Part shown: positions 5,812 through 54,384 of the stretch, in pieces | Layout of the letters: each line of letters starts with the position of its first letter | Position numbering within the stretch: position 1 is the first letter of the stretch | Origin: a virus | Length of the DNA stretch: 64,000 nt | Reading direction: 5' to 3' (one strand) | Virus record (IMG/VR): IMGVR_UViG_3300026097_000805 | Span: 64,001-128,000 of that record | Notes under the pieces: model-generated | Databases searched by the model: none | Told to the model about the DNA's origin: nothing | Seen by the model: the letters and a program-made list of their open reading frames with translations, nothing else | Made by a program: the position numbers and the translations under genes

Positions 5812-6300
5812 TTACATCTTCACACAGTTGTCTACAGTTTTGCCGCCCTTTTTCTTAGTGCCCATACGCTTGTAGCCTTTCCAGCATACTTTGCCGTCTA
5901 CACCTTTTTGCTTTTCTTCAGGTAGGGTAGTATAACTAGGCTTACCACAGTCTGAACAAACACCTTCAGTTTTTTCTGCTAGTTTTGAACGCAGGGCATC
6001 GACATAGTTTTTAGATTCTACAGGCATTTCTGCAGGCATTGCTTGCCCACCGTTTGCAAACTTCATATCATAATCTAGTGCATGGTATACACTTGACATA
6101 TAATCTGCTGCTTTAGTAATTTTGCTCTGCTGCCAGCCCTCGATGCCCTCTGCTTCTGAAACAGTTTTTAACATCTCGTGTAGCTTTACAGCATACTTTG
6201 CAATTTTATATAGGTCTGAACGAGCCATCTGAACTTCGTGATCACGTTCTGCACGATCGGCTAATTCACCTAGACCTTCTTGTATTTTTTTCATTCTCAT
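5812..6300 (-). CDS. Hypothetical protein with C-terminal CWKGYK basic module
   Basis: EGWQQSKITKAADYMSSVYHALDY core plus KVCWKGYKRMGTKKKGGKTVDNCV tail; GATAAATA upstream. Confidence 0.75.
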   Translation of the reverse strand: MRMKKIQEGLGELADRAERDHEVQMARSDLYKIAKYAVKLHEMLKTVSEAEGIEGWQQSKITKAADYMSSVYHALDYDMKFANGGQAMPAEMPVESKNYVDALRSKLAEKTEGVCSDCGKPSYTTLPEEKQKGVDGKVCWKGYKRMGTKKKGGKTVDNCVKM

Positions 6301-6329
6301 TGAAGCACTCCAATATACGTATAATGTAT

Positions 6330-6848
6330 TTATCGTTTGAGCGTTTGACCTGACATTAAATTAGCACCGCTGTCTAGTGCATTTGGCGCAACACCCTTGC
6401 GCTTTTTAGGCTTTTTAGCATTACGAGTGACACTTGGATTGGATACTGTGGCAATTGCGCCGCCCCCTACACTTGTTGCACCGCTAGTTGCAGTTTCGTT
6501 ATATACATTTCCTACACTTCGGCTTTGTGCAATTATTTTATCTCCACGTTTAAGTACATAACTTGGAACTGGAGTATCGTGCTTTGAATACACATTTTCA
6601 ATTGCTTTGCCAAAATTCGTCCATTTTTCTTTTGCTGTATTTCCTTCGAAATCTGTAAGGTCAAATTCTTTACCATTATCCATTACAATTACTAAAGTTG
6701 CTTGGCTATCGGCTGTGTTGTCTCTTAATTTTTTCTTGCGACGACGACCACTTGCTTTTGCGGCTTTATAGCTTTTCTTATAGCTTTTTGATTTTAAACG
6801 ACCTTCTGTTTCAATCGATTCTTCGCTTAAAATTTCATTTACTCTCAT
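6330..6848 (-). CDS. Hypothetical protein (probable internal-head protein)
   Basis: Start reassigned to MRVNEILSEE at 6848; contains NETATSGATSVGGGAIATV. Confidence 0.7.
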   Translation of the reverse strand: MRVNEILSEESIETEGRLKSKSYKKSYKAAKASGRRRKKKLRDNTADSQATLVIVMDNGKEFDLTDFEGNTAKEKWTNFGKAIENVYSKHDTPVPSYVLKRGDKIIAQSRSVGNVYNETATSGATSVGGGAIATVSNPSVTRNAKKPKKRKGVAPNALDSGANLMSGQTLKR

Positions 6849-8520: not shown

Positions 8521-9335
8521 TTTTTACGTCCTTGACAATGTGCTTTTTGACTGAAGCCTTTTGGATTAGAGCAATTAATACTGTCTTTATATTTTTTACT
8601 CCATTTTTCTTCTATACTCTCAACCTGTGACATTGCTTTTTGCATTTGCTTTTGACTAAACTTTATACCTTGTCTAACAAGAAATTTTTGTAAGAAGGTT
8701 AAGTGTGCCAAACCAATAGCTGCTGCAATCATTATAAGGATATTTGGTGCAAACTTTTTTATTAGTTCAGCTAATGCACTAGGTTTTTTATTTTTATATC
8801 TAGCTACTATTTGATCAAAATTCTTAGGACGTAGTTGAGGTACTGGAGCAGTTGCTGGTGCTGCTTCAGTTTGTAGCACATCTCGTGCAGTCTTAATAGC
8901 ATCAGGTCCTTGAGGATGTTTCGGATTAATACTTACTACTTCACCATTTATGAGTTCTGAAATGTTAGCCGCTTTGCCTACGCTATCTAGCACTTGATGT
9001 AATTTGTCTTGTGCATCATAGTTGCCACGTTCATAACCTTTTTTACCACGAACTTCTATACGATGTTTATTGTTAGTATCCATGATATGTAAAACATCTA
9101 TTTCGTCGTCTCTTTCTAAACGAAGCTTAATGCCTTCTGTCAGGCCTAAATTAAAAAGAACATTAGTGCTTTTACCTTTGACTTTTTTGCTTAGTGTAGG
9201 CGGACGTCCGTCTCGGTCTACTGTATTGCCAAATTTCTTTGCTTGTTTAGTGATTTCATCAGGGCCTACGTCAGGCGTTGTGTTTACACCTTTTACAATT
9301 CTGCCTACGCCTTCGTATAACTCGTAAACCTTCAT
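8517..9335 (-). CDS. Modular hypothetical protein (probable internal-head protein)
   Basis: MKVYELYE start; modules separated by LTE/LQTE/IEE; C-terminal KWSKKYKDSINCSNPKGFSQKAHC. Confidence 0.75.
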   Translation of the reverse strand: MKVYELYEGVGRIVKGVNTTPDVGPDEITKQAKKFGNTVDRDGRPPTLSKKVKGKSTNVLFNLGLTEGIKLRLERDDEIDVLHIMDTNNKHRIEVRGKKGYERGNYDAQDKLHQVLDSVGKAANISELINGEVVSINPKHPQGPDAIKTARDVLQTEAAPATAPVPQLRPKNFDQIVARYKNKKPSALAELIKKFAPNILIMIAAAIGLAHLTFLQKFLVRQGIKFSQKQMQKAMSQVESIEEKWSKKYKDSINCSNPKGFSQKAHCQGRKK

Positions 9336-9550
9336 TTCTTTTTACGACCCCTAAATTGTACCTGCCCTGTCATATAAGGTTTACTAAACCATAACTGAAA
9401 CCATTCTGGATCACCTGGGCGTATATTCATTTCACGTTCTTTTTTCTTGATAGCTGCCGCTGTCTCGCTAGGATTTTCGTCTAACACATATTCTGTGTAG
9501 CCTTTGAATTCATTTATTCCAGCAAGTTTGCGAAGCTCATCTAGATCCAT
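9332..9550 (-). CDS. Small hypothetical protein
   Basis: MDLDELRKLAGINE start and IRPGDPEWFQLWF; 4-nt and 1-nt overlaps with neighbours. Confidence 0.75.
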   Translation of the reverse strand: MDLDELRKLAGINEFKGYTEYVLDENPSETAAAIKKKEREMNIRPGDPEWFQLWFSKPYMTGQVQFRGRKKK

Positions 9551-11718
9551 TATAGCCCCTGTTCAACTGCTTGAGCTAGTTGCTCCGCACCTACTTCTTT
9601 ACCGTCTAAGTAAATTTTTGCTGTACCTTTGTCTAGCAAGGGCTTTACGGCCATAGGATCCTTGAGAATAGCAAGAGGATCTCCGCCTAGTATCTGTGTC
9701 ATCATTGTTCTAGGATTTTTGTGAAATGCTGGACGATCTAAGACTTTACCGGTAAGTGCTACTTTAAGTCTGCCTATTGTTATACTACCTTTAATTACAG
9801 GTTGACCTTTTCTTGCATCGAAAATAAATCTAGCACCGCCGAACGCATATGACAAATAATCAGCCTCACTCGGTTTGTTTCCTTCTAATGGTCCTCTTGC
9901 TTCTAATCCACCACCGCTAAAAATATAACGAGCTTTACCATCTGCATACTTTATTGTAGACAGGCCATTAACAACGGGAGTTTGCGTTTTGATTAGTTTT
10001 CCATTAGCATCATAAAACTTTTTACCCCATGCTCCACTGTGTGTATAGCTTCCGTCTGCGGCATAGTCTTTTGTGCTCCCGTCTGGTAATTCTTCAGATC
10101 TTTCTTCGTTAAATTCTGCACTCACGTCTGCTGTGTCTTTATCTAATTGTCTTTGGCCTAAATCAATTAATTTTTCTACTGATAATCCGCTCAATTTTTG
10201 TGCTTGTGTTATCATTTGATTTGCTTTTTTCTTTGCTGAAGGTGATAAAATTACAGTTGTATCCATTTCATCTCCGCCAGTGAGGCTACCTTGTAATAAA
10301 TTTTGTGCCCCCATAGCTAGTGCAATTGCTCTTTCTAAATTAGGATTAGAAGATTCACGCATTTTCTTTTTACGATTTTTACAACTTGCTTCAAACGCGG
10401 TTATAACATCTTCGCTTGTAATTTGATAACGCTTGCCGCGGCTCTTAATTTCTTTGCCAACAAGTATTTTAAGAACTTTAGAAAGTTTGGCAATATCTTG
10501 TTCTTTATCAATAGCATCGTCAATTAGCATACGTAGATATTGACGTAGTTGTACAGGGTCGATCACAACATCGCTTTCGTTGGTTTTCTTTTTCTTCTTA
10601 TTATGTTGTGCCCAAGCTATAGCATATGGCGCACCTTCGTCATCCGGAAATTCTTTTTTAAGAGCTTTTACTTGATCTTCTCTTCCTGGAGGTGCTTCTT
10701 CATCAGTCTTTTTATATTTCTTTAGCATCTTCTCCTCATCTGGAGAATCACCAAAATATTTGTGTACTAAATCATCTAATTCGTTGTGAAATTTATCTTC
10801 GTCTTTAGGTGATACATCTTCTTTTTTAAACAAATCATTCAATGAATCATCGGAGTAGCCTGGACCGCTTCCTAACCAACTACGCTGTGACATTCTTGTC
10901 TTTTCGTCCGGTATTAACCCTAACTTTTCGTAGTATTGTCTTAACTCCGATCTTGACATTTCCTGAGATTTTTTAGCATAGTCTGCCATTATTAATTCTT
11001 CTGCTCTTTTTGGATCTATACCATTGTCAATCATCTTCTGTTTTATTCTAGCAAATATATTATTACTATTTTCTGCTACATTTTCGCTTACAGGTGCTTC
11101 TGGATCGCCTAATGCTTTGTTAAGCAGTTGCGTAGCTGTTTGTGCATTCCCTGGATACATTAGTTCGGCGGCCTGTAATTTGTCTTCGTCTGACATTTCT
11201 GGCCATGCTGCTCGTAGCTCACTAGCACTTTTAATGCTCATGCCGCTAAAATTAAAGTCAATTGTAGGACCGTATGCTAGATAACCGTGGGTATCTGCTG
11301 TTTCTAATTCACCGTCATTATAAGAAATTAAGTATCCCATGTTGCCATCACTTTTACGCACTTGATCAGGTAAAGGATGACTTGTTTTATCTTTTTCGCT
11401 ACGCACAAATACAAGTGCTGTCTGTGATGCGTCACTTATAATATCGTTATAGGATAACGCATTAAAAGGTGACTTGACCTGTATAAATCTGTTAGCAGGA
11501 ACACCAGCCATTTGTGCAAGTTTTATCTTTACATCGAATGGAAAAGGCCTTGATTTTGTATCATTAGTTGCTGCAACATATACATTATCTTTACCAAATG
11601 TTTCTACAGCCCAGTCATACAGACTTTTGTGCCCGGGATGAAAAGGATGAAATCCACCAGGCATAACTGCTATTACTTTTTGTGCAGGTGCTGCTTCAAA
11701 TAGTTGACGTAGTCTCAC
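9550..11718 (-). CDS. HIGH-family (cytidylyltransferase-like) nucleotidyltransferase fused to head-protein modules
   Basis: PGGFHPFHPGH, SASELR; MRLRQLFE start; multiple xxE junctions. Confidence 0.75.
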   Translation of the reverse strand: MRLRQLFEAAPAQKVIAVMPGGFHPFHPGHKSLYDWAVETFGKDNVYVAATNDTKSRPFPFDVKIKLAQMAGVPANRFIQVKSPFNALSYNDIISDASQTALVFVRSEKDKTSHPLPDQVRKSDGNMGYLISYNDGELETADTHGYLAYGPTIDFNFSGMSIKSASELRAAWPEMSDEDKLQAAELMYPGNAQTATQLLNKALGDPEAPVSENVAENSNNIFARIKQKMIDNGIDPKRAEELIMADYAKKSQEMSRSELRQYYEKLGLIPDEKTRMSQRSWLGSGPGYSDDSLNDLFKKEDVSPKDEDKFHNELDDLVHKYFGDSPDEEKMLKKYKKTDEEAPPGREDQVKALKKEFPDDEGAPYAIAWAQHNKKKKKTNESDVVIDPVQLRQYLRMLIDDAIDKEQDIAKLSKVLKILVGKEIKSRGKRYQITSEDVITAFEASCKNRKKKMRESSNPNLERAIALAMGAQNLLQGSLTGGDEMDTTVILSPSAKKKANQMITQAQKLSGLSVEKLIDLGQRQLDKDTADVSAEFNEERSEELPDGSTKDYAADGSYTHSGAWGKKFYDANGKLIKTQTPVVNGLSTIKYADGKARYIFSGGGLEARGPLEGNKPSEADYLSYAFGGARFIFDARKGQPVIKGSITIGRLKVALTGKVLDRPAFHKNPRTMMTQILGGDPLAILKDPMAVKPLLDKGTAKIYLDGKEVGAEQLAQAVEQGL

Positions 11719-52766: not shown

Positions 52767-52795
52767 ACTATACACGTTTATTTATCTTCTGTCAA
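52767..52795 (-). promoter_or_regulatory. Composite promoter for leader 2 and tRNA array 2
   Basis: TTGACA-17 nt-TATAGT with GATAAATA (52779-52786) in the spacer. Confidence 0.85.
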
Positions 52796-52838: not shown

Positions 52839-52913
52839 TGGTACACCGTAGGGGAATCGAACCCCTCTTTCCTGCGTGAAAGGCAAGCGTCCTAACCGAT
52901 AGACGAACGGTGC
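52839..52913 (-). tRNA. tRNA-Glu(TTC)
   Basis: Canonical cloverleaf, CCA. Confidence 0.95.
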
Positions 52914-52918
52914 ATATA

Positions 52919-52995
<77 letters not shown>

Positions 52996-53001
52996 AATAA
53001 T

Positions 53002-53094
53002 TGGCGGTGAGGGTGGGATTTGAACCCACGGAACGCTATTAACGTTCGTCTGTTTTCAAGACAGGTGCAATAAGCCGGACTCTGCCACCTCACC
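53002..53094 (-). tRNA. tRNA-Ser(TGA)
   Basis: Class II, long variable arm, G73, CCA. Confidence 0.95.
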
Positions 53095-53101
53095 AATAAA
53101 T

Positions 53102-53387
53102 TGGCAGCCCGTTAGCCACACACCGTTGGAATGATGCTTGTGACCCCTACACTGTAATAGCCCTGCTGTCTAGTTTATCAGTCTAGGGCACAAACTATTG
53201 TTTAGGTATAGGACTTTTGCTTCTCACTAAAGACCGCCACGGACCAACGGACGGCACTCTTTAGAACTAACACTAATGCAAAGAGCAAGTGGTTAACCAA
53301 TGCATCGACCTAGTTACTTGATAGACTATATCATATCTTTCGCTACTATCGGGCGGTTCAGGCCCTTATCGCCGTCTCTTTCGAGCT
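53102..53387 (-). ncRNA. Unidentified ~286-nt structured RNA ending in CCA
   Basis: 5' AGCUCG pairs with 3' CGGGCU before G-CCA; several internal stems; sits in a tRNA slot of the array; no listed ORF. Confidence 0.6.
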
Positions 53388-53397
53388 AGTGTGTAGT

Positions 53398-53473
53398 TGG
53401 TAGCGGGAGCAGGAATCGAACCTACCTCAGTCCGGCTTATGAGACCAGTGAGTTCCCAGAACTCTATCCCGCA
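53398..53473 (-). tRNA. Initiator-like tRNA-fMet(CAT)
   Basis: 1:72 mismatch (U-U), GCGGG acceptor, CCA. Confidence 0.85.
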
Positions 53474-53476
53474 ACT

Positions 53477-53550
53477 TGGAGCGGATACCGAGAATCGAAC
53501 TCGGACGATCACGTTGGCAACGTGAGAGGCTACCTTTACATCATATCCGC
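53477..53550 (-). tRNA. tRNA-Gly(GCC)
   Basis: U73, CCA. Confidence 0.93.
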
Positions 53551-53554
53551 AATA

Positions 53555-53630
53555 TGGTGGAGATACGCGGGATCGAACCGCGGACCTGAAGCTTGCAAAG
53601 CTACTGCTCTCCCATCTGAGCTATATCCCC
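53555..53630 (-). tRNA. tRNA-Ala(TGC)
   Basis: G3-U70, CCA. Confidence 0.96.
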
Positions 53631-53635
53631 ATTAA

Positions 53636-53712
<77 letters not shown>

Positions 53713-53719
53713 TTTAATA

Positions 53720-53802
53720 TGGTGCCCTGGGGGAGACTCGAACTCCCACTCCGAAGAACTGGTACCTAAAACCAGCGTGTCTACCAATTCCACCACCAGG
53801 GC
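53720..53802 (-). tRNA. tRNA-Leu(TAG)
   Basis: Class II, CCA. Confidence 0.95.
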
Positions 53803-53808
53803 AATTTA

Positions 53809-53883
53809 TGGTGCTGATGGAGAGAATCGAACTCCCAATCTACGCATTACAAGTGCGTTGCCTTACCATTCGGCCACATCAGC
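53809..53883 (-). tRNA. tRNA-Thr(TGT)
   Basis: Canonical cloverleaf, CCA. Confidence 0.95.
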
Positions 53884-53889
53884 AATATT

Positions 53890-53964
53890 TGGAGCGGGTG
53901 GACGGGATCGAACCGACGACACCTGACTTGGAAGGACAGTGCTCTACCACTGAGCTACACCCGC
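53890..53964 (-). tRNA. tRNA-Gly(TCC)
   Basis: U73, CCA. Confidence 0.95.
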
Positions 53965-53968
53965 AATA

Positions 53969-54057
53969 TGGCGGAGCGACTGGGAGTCGAACCCAGTGAA
54001 CGCGGTTAGCGTTCTACGGATTAGCAATCCGCTGCATTACCATCCTGCCCCCGCTCC
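53969..54057 (-). tRNA. tRNA-Ser(GCT)
   Basis: Class II, G73, CCA. Confidence 0.95.
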
Positions 54058-54127
54058 GTATGTGTTTGGCTCTACCCTCCCCTCTGGGCGATTTAACTAA
54101 CGAGGCATCTTGCGTTAGTACCATGTT

Positions 54128-54202
54128 TGGCTCCCGGTGTTGGAATCGAACCAACCAATGACGGATTAACAGTCCGCTCCCCCACCTTGGGGGCAACCGG
54201 GA
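54128..54202 (-). tRNA. tRNA-Asn(GTT)
   Basis: U1-A72, G73, CCA. Confidence 0.93.
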
Positions 54203-54210
54203 ATAAACCT

Positions 54211-54234
54211 AAATATTGTATCTAAATTGTCAAA
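54211..54234. repeat. Leader arm of the 24-bp inverted repeat enclosing tRNA array 1
   Basis: Exact reverse complement of 52811-52834. Confidence 0.92.
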
Positions 54235-54261
54235 GAGCGTGTAGCAAGTTCTTCTTGCTAC
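54228..54261 (-). promoter_or_regulatory. rrn-like antitermination leader (boxB-like hairpin plus boxA-like motif)
   Basis: GTAGCAAG-5 nt-CTTGCTAC then CGCTCTTTGACA (10/12 to E. coli rrn boxA TGCTCTTTAACA). Confidence 0.65.
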
Positions 54262-54272
54262 GTTATGTATAT

Positions 54273-54301
54273 ACTATACTACTTTATTCTGTGCCTGTCA
54301 A
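54273..54301 (-). promoter_or_regulatory. Sigma70 promoter directly upstream of tRNA array 1
   Basis: TTGACA-17 nt-TATAGT. Confidence 0.85.
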
Positions 54302-54321: not shown

Positions 54322-54358
54322 AAAAAAAAACCTTCCTTGCTGTGTGCTTGGAAGGTTT
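54322..54358 (-). terminator. Intrinsic terminator of attenuator 1
   Basis: AAACCTTCC-13 nt-GGAAGGTTT with a 9-U tract. Confidence 0.85.
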
Positions 54359-54384
54359 TTGGAATCTTGTTAGCTAATGCTCGC

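Follow-up and report, generated by a model that had tools for sequence, protein, structure and literature searches.

A ribosomal-operon-like leader with a boxA element before a tRNA block of an uncultured phage

How a phage gets a long tRNA precursor transcribed to its end is the question raised by the locus described here, since an untranslated precursor of 1.4 kb is naturally exposed to Rho and requires Rho-resistant transcription. Outside the lambdoid phages, Nus-factor antitermination is mostly viewed as specific for rRNA, with a few mRNA targets. The analysed DNA, below called the window, is the 64,000-nt stretch from base 64001 to base 128000 of a record which is 179,647 nt long, has a G+C content of about 40%, and represents an uncultured marine phage. 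In a preceding sequence-only reading it was proposed that the leader of a tRNA operon in the window mimics the leader of ribosomal RNA (rrn) operons and recruits host Nus factors against Rho. The comparative data collected below make it fairly probable, but not certain, that this leader is a working copy of a host ribosomal-operon leader placed before a phage tRNA block, with binding, antitermination, and cleavage being inferred.

Architecture of the leader and the leader-trailer helix

The window carries 20 tRNA genes, all of them on the minus strand, and the leader lies upstream of the first block (Table 1). When the minus strand is read, the order previously described, namely sigma70 promoter, 8-bp hairpin, and boxA-like motif, is exact. 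The promoter ranks among the three best promoter-like sites found by promoter scan in the 52–64 kb region, and boxA is located 34 nt past its −10 element, the start site being predicted and not mapped. The hairpin is situated about 5 nt past the predicted RNA start and 2 nt ahead of boxA, i.e., in the place of boxB in rrn leaders. Thus the proposed boxB-then-boxA order stands insofar as the hairpin precedes boxA as it does in rrn leaders, but the hairpin is boxB-like in position only and its loop is not conserved. The stretch following the hairpin and AC and preceding tRNA-Asn reads GCTCTTTGACAATTTAGATACAATATTTAGG, and boxA is found 20–25 nt upstream of this tRNA gene. According to the predicted fold (z −3.75), the first 64 nt of the RNA form the hairpin and a weak second hairpin, separated by 12 unpaired nt which contain the boxA core; in the minimum-energy fold, which is a prediction only, ACGCUCUUUGAC is unpaired between the two hairpins. 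The second tRNA unit of the window phage has no boxA, and the layout in which the trailer arm is followed by a promoter also occurs in two related contigs (L307 and L506).

Table 1. Positions of the leader, tRNA block 1, and adjoining elements in the window.
Feature	Position	Strand	Remarks
Intrinsic terminator-like hairpin with U-tract	54322–54364	−	just upstream of the promoter; ends the preceding leader unit; context only
Sigma70-type promoter, TTGACA-17-TATAGT	54273–54301	−	11/12 to consensus; predicted start near A54266
−35 TTGACA	54301–54296	−	followed by 17-nt spacer
−10 TATAGT	54278–54273	−
8-bp hairpin, GTAGCAAG-AAGAA-CTTGCTAC	54241–54261	−	loop AAGAA
Linker A	54240	−
Motif CGCTCTTTGACA	54239–54228	−
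boxA-like element CGCTCTTTGACAA	54227–54239	−	preceded by AC
NusB/S10-contact core CGCUCUUU	54239–54232	−	8 nt
Leader arm of leader-trailer helix	54211–54237	−	overlaps 3′ part of boxA
tRNA-Asn, start	54202	−
tRNA block 1	52839–54202	−	12 tRNA genes, Asn to Glu; enclosed by helix
Non-tRNA sequence within block 1	53102–53387		about 300 nt
Trailer arm of helix	52808–52834	−	begins 4 nt past tRNA-Glu
Next promoter, TTGACA-17-TATAGT	52767–52795	−	directly after trailer arm; starts second tRNA unit

The boxA-like motif had also been said to begin a long-range stem, and this claim is borne out by two arms of 27 nt which are 96% complementary, 24 nt of them perfectly, while reversed-sequence controls for long-range arms gave nothing above 13 nt. 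Comparable helices were found in L307 (24 bp, spanning 1.4 kb and enclosing 5 tRNAs), in L321 (25 bp, one of them a U.G pair, over 0.67 kb and with 3 tRNAs), and in L506 (24 bp, 2.7 kb, 13 tRNAs). Three positions of the arms vary between these three and the window, and as every trailer matches its own leader, the changes are compensatory; a U.G pair like that of L321 is compatible with pairing in RNA but not with pairing in DNA. The UUU of boxA is the start of the arm in each of the four phages, and the trailer begins a few bases past the last tRNA. Most tRNA-linked boxA sites in other phages lack a long-range partner of at least 15 nt. With the same method the leader-trailer repeat of E. coli rrnB was found to start in TTTAACAA of boxA, and a Hyphomicrobiaceae rrn operon has a 30-bp helix starting 8 nt after boxA. 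The helix of the window would pair boxA nucleotides 6–13, overlapping the boxA core by 3 nt, and therefore boxA binding would have to come first and helix formation later. The helix is long enough to be a likely substrate of RNase III, cleavage being inferred.

boxA spelling in bacterial rrn leaders and in cultured phages

The 10/12 identity to the E. coli rrnB boxA claimed in the sequence-only reading was reproduced, and it becomes 15/17 when the comparison is extended to YGCTCTTTRACAATTTA, the E. coli operon reading hairpin, AC, and TGCTCTTTAACAATTTA. The distance of boxA from the predicted start is also close (about +28 in the window versus about +32 in E. coli rrnB P2). Core positions 2–8 are identical to those of E. 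coli, while the C at position 1 is shared with lambda; the CGCTCTT core is indeed common to the window and the lambda nut boxA, as had been noticed, both nutL and nutR carrying CGCTCTTA. Position 9 is G in the window, in contrast to the first A of the gammaproteobacterial consensus GYTCTTTAANA (PMC5725501). Because NusB-S10 reads only boxA nucleotides 1–8, with a G9 also in the boxA of Aquifex (crystal structure paper, PMC3177189), the deviation from E. coli falls outside the contacted core. The sequence criterion for boxA, which is a (U/C)GCUCUUU core within GYTCTTTAANA or a class-specific variant of it, is met. A single exact copy of the 12-mer is present in the window, and no further one in the rest of the 179.6-kb record; with one mismatch allowed the window has 3 matches versus 1.7 expected from shuffles. 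The 12-mer alone is weak evidence, and it gains weight only through its position and the comparative data.

Concerning the rrn leaders themselves, E. coli is not the right comparison, and the match is better than the sequence-only reading supposed, being 11/11 to the alphaproteobacterial consensus. This was established on a sample of 30 alphaproteobacterial 16S loci, the upstream sequence of which was examined for GYTCTTTRANA; one unpublished genome (G044) was included, and no claim depends on it. A boxA with at most one mismatch from this pattern is present in 24 of the 30 leaders, 130–364 nt upstream of 16S, and G instead of the first A of the consensus is found in 23 of these 24. The exact pattern occurs in 15 of the 30 leaders, of which 11 read GCTCTTTGACA, the sequence of the window (11/11). 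The 16-mer GCTCTTTGACAATTTA is present in three Hyphomicrobiales rrn leaders (two Hyphomicrobiaceae and one of the Rhizobiaceae group), and the two Hyphomicrobiaceae leaders read GCTCTTTGACAATTTAGAT, which is 19/19 with the window. When a genome collection was scanned with the 16-mer, rRNA was found on 4 of 120 loci among the matches listed, giving a lead to Alphaproteobacteria and no host. A class-wide scan with the boxA pattern was uninformative, 48 of 401 genomes being matched and control matches being frequent. The best cultured homologues of the phosphoesterase encoded downstream of the tRNA array in the window belong to phages of Sinorhizobium and Ruegeria, so that an alphaproteobacterial host of the window phage may be suggested, though weakly and with the support of this single gene.

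Several cultured phages carry a similar element. In Roseobacter phage DSS3P8, which infects the alphaproteobacterium Ruegeria pomeroyi, the G form CACGCTCTTTGACAATTTGG (record position about 6320) is followed after about 100 nt by two tRNA-Glu genes, both unannotated, with which the tRNA region of this phage begins. Those with gammaproteobacterial hosts have the TTAACA, or A, form: the T5-like Vibrio phages VspSw_1 and Ceto contain TTGACA-17-GATACT, the hairpin GTTCCC-AA-GGGAAC, AC, and GCTCTTTAACAATTTGG before the pre-early genes A2/A1, and among E. coli phages TGCTCTTTAACAATTTGG follows a promoter in T5-like EPS7, TGCTCTTTAACAATCTG precedes the first gene of SP6-like ACG-C91, and CGCTCTTTAACAATCTGG is located 62 nt after the A3 start of T7. 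The T7 site has presumably been remarked on before in the literature. On the basis of these few cultured phages, boxA spelling in phages appears to follow the class of the host.

In these phage records some additional features were observed. The early-leader boxA sites (L450:2950–3030, L451:2950–3030, L482:1150–1230, L483:800–850, and L484:400–440) are unannotated, and the T5-like boxA before A2/A1 lies inside the terminal repeat. In DSS3P8, ARAGORN finds two tRNA-Glu and a tmRNA-like gene missing from the deposited annotation (L449:3617–3802 and 6245–6666, corresponding to 6433–6618 and 9061–9482 of the record).

Occurrence of the leader in other phages

Lack of conservation in related arrays had been named in advance as a result that would refute the proposal. 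The loci of relatives were obtained by means of the phosphoesterase gene, the nearest being L011 (94% identical protein) and L013 and L014 (88%). At the homologous place of the closest relatives L011–L014 the leader module is absent, and alignment with these four shows no conservation: L011 has a leader-peptide/terminator unit followed by tRNAs, L012 has an HNH nuclease gene, and L013 and L014 have unrelated sequence. Accordingly, the module is not fixed in this lineage and is optional, dispensable, or replaceable. Homology searches also gave nothing for the leader as a whole, since no homologous sequence was returned by BLAST against cultured phages, the exact leader 34-mer is absent from the viral contigs, and there is no Rfam family for it. 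That the motif is due to chance, as was first suggested by the lack of conservation in the four closest relatives, was a reading overturned by wider scans of viral contigs.

In L012 (positions 415–615) the HNH-type nuclease reading frame, with the motif ...CANCH...H, adjoins tRNA-Asn where the window has its leader, an indication that the heads of such arrays are remodelled by the traffic of homing endonucleases.

The wider scans were carried out with GYTCTTTRACAATTTA on a viral contig collection, using the same letters reversed as a control; raw match totals were uninformative, but motif and control differ sharply in the position of their matches relative to tRNA genes. Among the matches listed, 30 of 123 lie within 700 nt of a tRNA gene on the sense strand versus 0 of 118 for the reversed control, while on the opposite strand the corresponding numbers are 1 of 123 and 3 of 118. 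The tRNA-linked sites represent at least 20 different sequence contexts, and in 13 of 28 of them a strong sigma70-type promoter is present no more than 110 nt upstream, compared with 6.7% of stretches picked at random in these loci; homologous leaders have the same kind of promoter as the window. The exact 18-mer ACGCTCTTTGACAATTTA was found in 42 viral contigs, about 2 being expected by chance, usually downstream of a sigma70 promoter and a covarying hairpin, with the ACGCTCT located 5′ of TTGACA invariant across these 42 contigs despite their unrelated flanks. A 20-mer was found in 30 metagenome contigs. The motif is consequently conserved, being placed downstream of promoters and on the sense strand in the tRNA arrays of many other phages, though not in those of the closest relatives, and the refuting result named in advance did not occur.

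Two settings of the element can be distinguished. In class A, to which the window belongs, the promoter, the hairpin, AC, and boxA are followed by a tRNA array usually headed by tRNA-Asn, and several arrays repeat the promoter-hairpin-boxA unit before successive sub-arrays, with boxA spelled GCTCTTTGACAAT or GCTCTTTGAAAAT. In class B, represented by many short marine contigs, the promoter is followed by two hairpins, AC, boxA, a ribosome-binding site, and the ATG of a small gene.

The hairpin preceding boxA was studied separately. Sixteen distinct stems abut boxA across the leaders, and MAFFT alignment of the hairpin region followed by RNAalifold predicted no structure, the stems being of different length and out of register. 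A covariance model was then built from seven in-register leaders and gave 58 matches in the loci searched. In the family alignment both-side changes are seen at all 7 pairs of the stem. In the hairpin alignment 98.3% of cells pair, versus 80.9% in shuffles and 27–53% with slid partners, and double changes are found in 23 cells versus 4.6 expected. This alignment was fitted to the covariance model and is hence biased towards structure; the effect is large. The loops vary across the family (AAGAA, GCAA, ATAA, AAAA, GTGA, GAAG, and others), and the absence of loop conservation argues against a sequence-specific N-like reader. A lambda-type nut site with such a reader of boxB was accordingly rejected, as the hairpin precedes boxA and the loops are unconserved. 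The data fit a structural role of the hairpin, which would keep boxA unpaired and perhaps protect the 5′ end.

A number of particular loci may be listed here as observations in their own right. The class B setting was seen in L075, L137, L143 (e.g., 1840–1990), L153, L300, L302, L309, L311, L314, L318, and L322–L325; the stem of its second hairpin covaries and is closed by a GGGCAA(A) loop, the 18-mer is the same as in class A, and the layout resembles the suhB-type boxA adjoining a start codon. The unit is repeated before a second sub-array in L129:13540–13650, L155:411–520 (minus), L304:5000–5110, L327:3837–3950 (minus), and L086:890–990, with boxA spelled GCTCTTTGAAAAT, GCTCTTTGATAAT, or GCTCTTTGACAGT, which recalls the second boxA of rrn spacers. 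In three distant phages (L052:7395–7420, L053:8015–8040, and L055:6950–6975) a boxA-like TGTTCTTTGACAATTG or TGCTCTTTGAAATTG stands between tRNA-Trp and tRNA-Ile, directly after tRNA-Trp, and is conserved although the downstream spacer differs.

Many class A relatives also have 200–500 nt of conserved non-tRNA sequence between boxA and tRNA-Asn, which the window does not have (L307:6400–6520, minus; L303:9610–9680; L304:3612–3690; L129:6710–6780), with TTAGACGCAAGTCGATGATGG and GTAAGTAG among its motifs; this stretch may be a small RNA. In L502 (oriented 11617–11654, plus-strand 762–799) the family hairpin and ACGCTCT are followed by ATAAT, i.e., by a truncated boxA, which is probably a recombinant or decayed copy. 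The metagenome contig L495 (1294–1336) has a leader nearly identical to that of the window, with one C-to-T change in the 3′ arm of the hairpin that converts a G-C pair to G.U; its leader-arm sequence, GATATAGTATTT, differs from that of the window, and the contig is too short to contain a trailer.

Proposed mechanism, rival readings, and significance

For the loading of NusB-S10 and the assembly of the rrn antitermination complex, boxA is both required and sufficient; this complex resists Rho, speeds elongation, and has been proposed to keep the leader close to the RNA exit up to the appearance of the trailer (PMC10250234, PMC12360218, PMC3177189). By analogy, host RNA polymerase would start at the sigma70 promoter of the window, and the first ~60 nt of RNA would form the 5′ hairpin followed by the unpaired boxA (CGCUCUUUGACAA). 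Host NusB-S10 (NusE) would bind the 8-nt core and, together with NusA, NusG, SuhB, and S4, convert the polymerase to an rrn-type antitermination complex that transcribes the 1.4-kb untranslated precursor quickly and resists Rho. The same complex would keep the leader near the RNA exit, so that the leader arm could pair with the trailer arm once the latter is made, and the resulting helix of 24–27 bp may be cut by RNase III, releasing the 12-tRNA block for further processing. Points that count against this account are the lack of the module in the closest relatives and of boxA in the second tRNA unit, the pairing of part of boxA in the helix, and the weakness of rrn-type complexes at intrinsic terminators. 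Given that the module recurs in many phages and that, in the few cases available, its boxA is spelled according to the host group, phages probably borrow the rRNA transcription machinery of the host to make tRNAs.

The layout agrees with that of a bacterial rrn leader in its promoter, hairpin, boxA, and leader strand of a long helix closing around structured RNAs, in a boxA identical to the alphaproteobacterial rrn consensus, and, as far as rrnB is concerned, in a leader-trailer repeat starting in boxA. Unlike an rrn operon, it encloses tRNAs and not 16S or 23S rRNA, is carried by a phage genome, has a perfect 24-bp helix overlapping the boxA core by 3 nt, and lacks a second boxA in the window phage, although some relatives repeat the unit. 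With lambda nutL and nutR it has in common C at position 1 and the use of host Nus factors by a phage element, which is inferred for the window; it differs from them in that lambda boxA is 5′ of boxB whereas the hairpin comes first in the window (the rrn order), and in that the full UUU of the rrn-type boxA is present. The early leaders of lytic coliphages (T7 CGCTCTTTAACAA after promoter A3 and T5-like pre-early leaders) similarly place an rrn-type boxA shortly after a promoter for host polymerase, and the Vibrio T5-like phages even share hairpin-AC-boxA with the window; unlike the window leader, the T7 and T5-like leaders head protein-coding early operons instead of tRNA arrays and have no leader-trailer helix. 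The suhB-type boxA of Gammaproteobacteria is likewise located outside rrn and was identified by GYTCTTTAANA, but it represses translation and promotes Rho termination, contrary to what is read from the window (Baniulyte et al. 2017, PMC5725501).

This last behaviour leads to one of the rival readings, in which boxA acts negatively as at suhB and hisG, Nus binding promoting Rho termination or throttling the array so that its output is tied to free Nus factors. Outside rrn such action of boxA, by Rho termination or translational repression, is known (PMC5725501, PMC12360218), and the class B elements do place boxA immediately before a ribosome-binding site; since the tRNA block is untranslated, the suhB mechanism of translation block followed by Rho polarity is inapplicable to it, and boxA acts positively in rrn, the layout of which is copied here, so this reading is considered highly improbable. 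Somewhat more room, while still unlikely, is left for the recruitment of Nus factors mainly for RNA handling and not against Rho, where the tethered 5′ leader would ensure that the helix forms around 1.4 kb of competing tRNA structure and that processing is ordered. It agrees with the leader arm beginning within boxA, with the compensatory changes that keep the helix in four phages, and with the rrn looping model, in which loss of the helix gives a stronger phenotype than loss of boxA (PMC10250234). It is weakened by the majority of tRNA-linked boxA sites elsewhere, which have no long-range partner of at least 15 nt, and by the boxA of T5-like, SP6-like, and T7 phages, which heads protein-coding early operons needing no such helix.

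The motif might instead act on DNA, its TTGACA (54233–54228) being either the −35 of a second, tandem promoter starting at tRNA-Asn or a protein-binding site, as TAGGTT follows after 16 nt and relatives have TATGCT, TACGCT, or TAGCTT in its place. The second sigma70 promoter was rejected because of its weak −10 candidate, TAGGTT matching only 3/6 (with a spacing criterion of 16–18 nt) and not being listed by the promoter scan; moreover, a −35 role leaves unexplained the invariant ACGCTCT, the identity to transcribed rrn leaders, and TTAACA in phages of gammaproteobacterial hosts, and we give action on DNA very little credence. Identity with bacterial rrn leaders that reaches 19 nt and the patchy presence of the module among close relatives could also be expected from a passenger, i.e., a functionless fragment of a host rrn leader gained by recombination and spread with the tRNA cassette, or, as a variant, from a decoy titrating Nus factors away from host rRNA synthesis. 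This too is hardly tenable: the 18-mer is invariant amid diverged surroundings and always lies on the sense strand after promoters, and the adjoining hairpin and trailer arm covary, all of which indicates selection. The working copy of a host rrn leader remains the preferred reading, and those predictions of the sequence-only reading that can be checked on sequences all held.

Neither for phage tRNA arrays nor for the T5/T7 leaders was a published description of boxA found, older subscription literature not being covered, and the boxA roles listed in a review of Rho from 2025 include none in phage tRNA arrays. The published boxA survey explicitly excluded non-coding RNAs (PMC5725501). The general idea of virulent phages carrying boxA is probably not wholly new, whereas the tRNA-array setting, the leader-trailer helix, and the matching to host class appear to be new.

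In summary, a broader proposition can be put forward, for which the case is evenly balanced: a portable mimic of the rrn operon may be widespread enough to occur in virulent phages that infect several classes of host. It would consist of a sigma70 promoter, a 5′ hairpin, and a boxA matched to the host, supplemented in some phages by a leader-trailer helix, and would convert host polymerase to an rrn-type complex for tRNA arrays and also for early operons. Tractable systems for testing it are Roseobacter phage DSS3P8 with its host Ruegeria pomeroyi and the T5-like phages with nus mutants of E. coli. If true, there is a second class of natural substrates for the rrn machine of antitermination and RNA chaperoning, and boxA spelling could mark the host class of uncultured phages. 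A conserved rrn-style leader would explain how long untranslated tRNA precursors of phages escape Rho and would bring tRNA arrays within the scope of the “polymerase as RNA chaperone” model.
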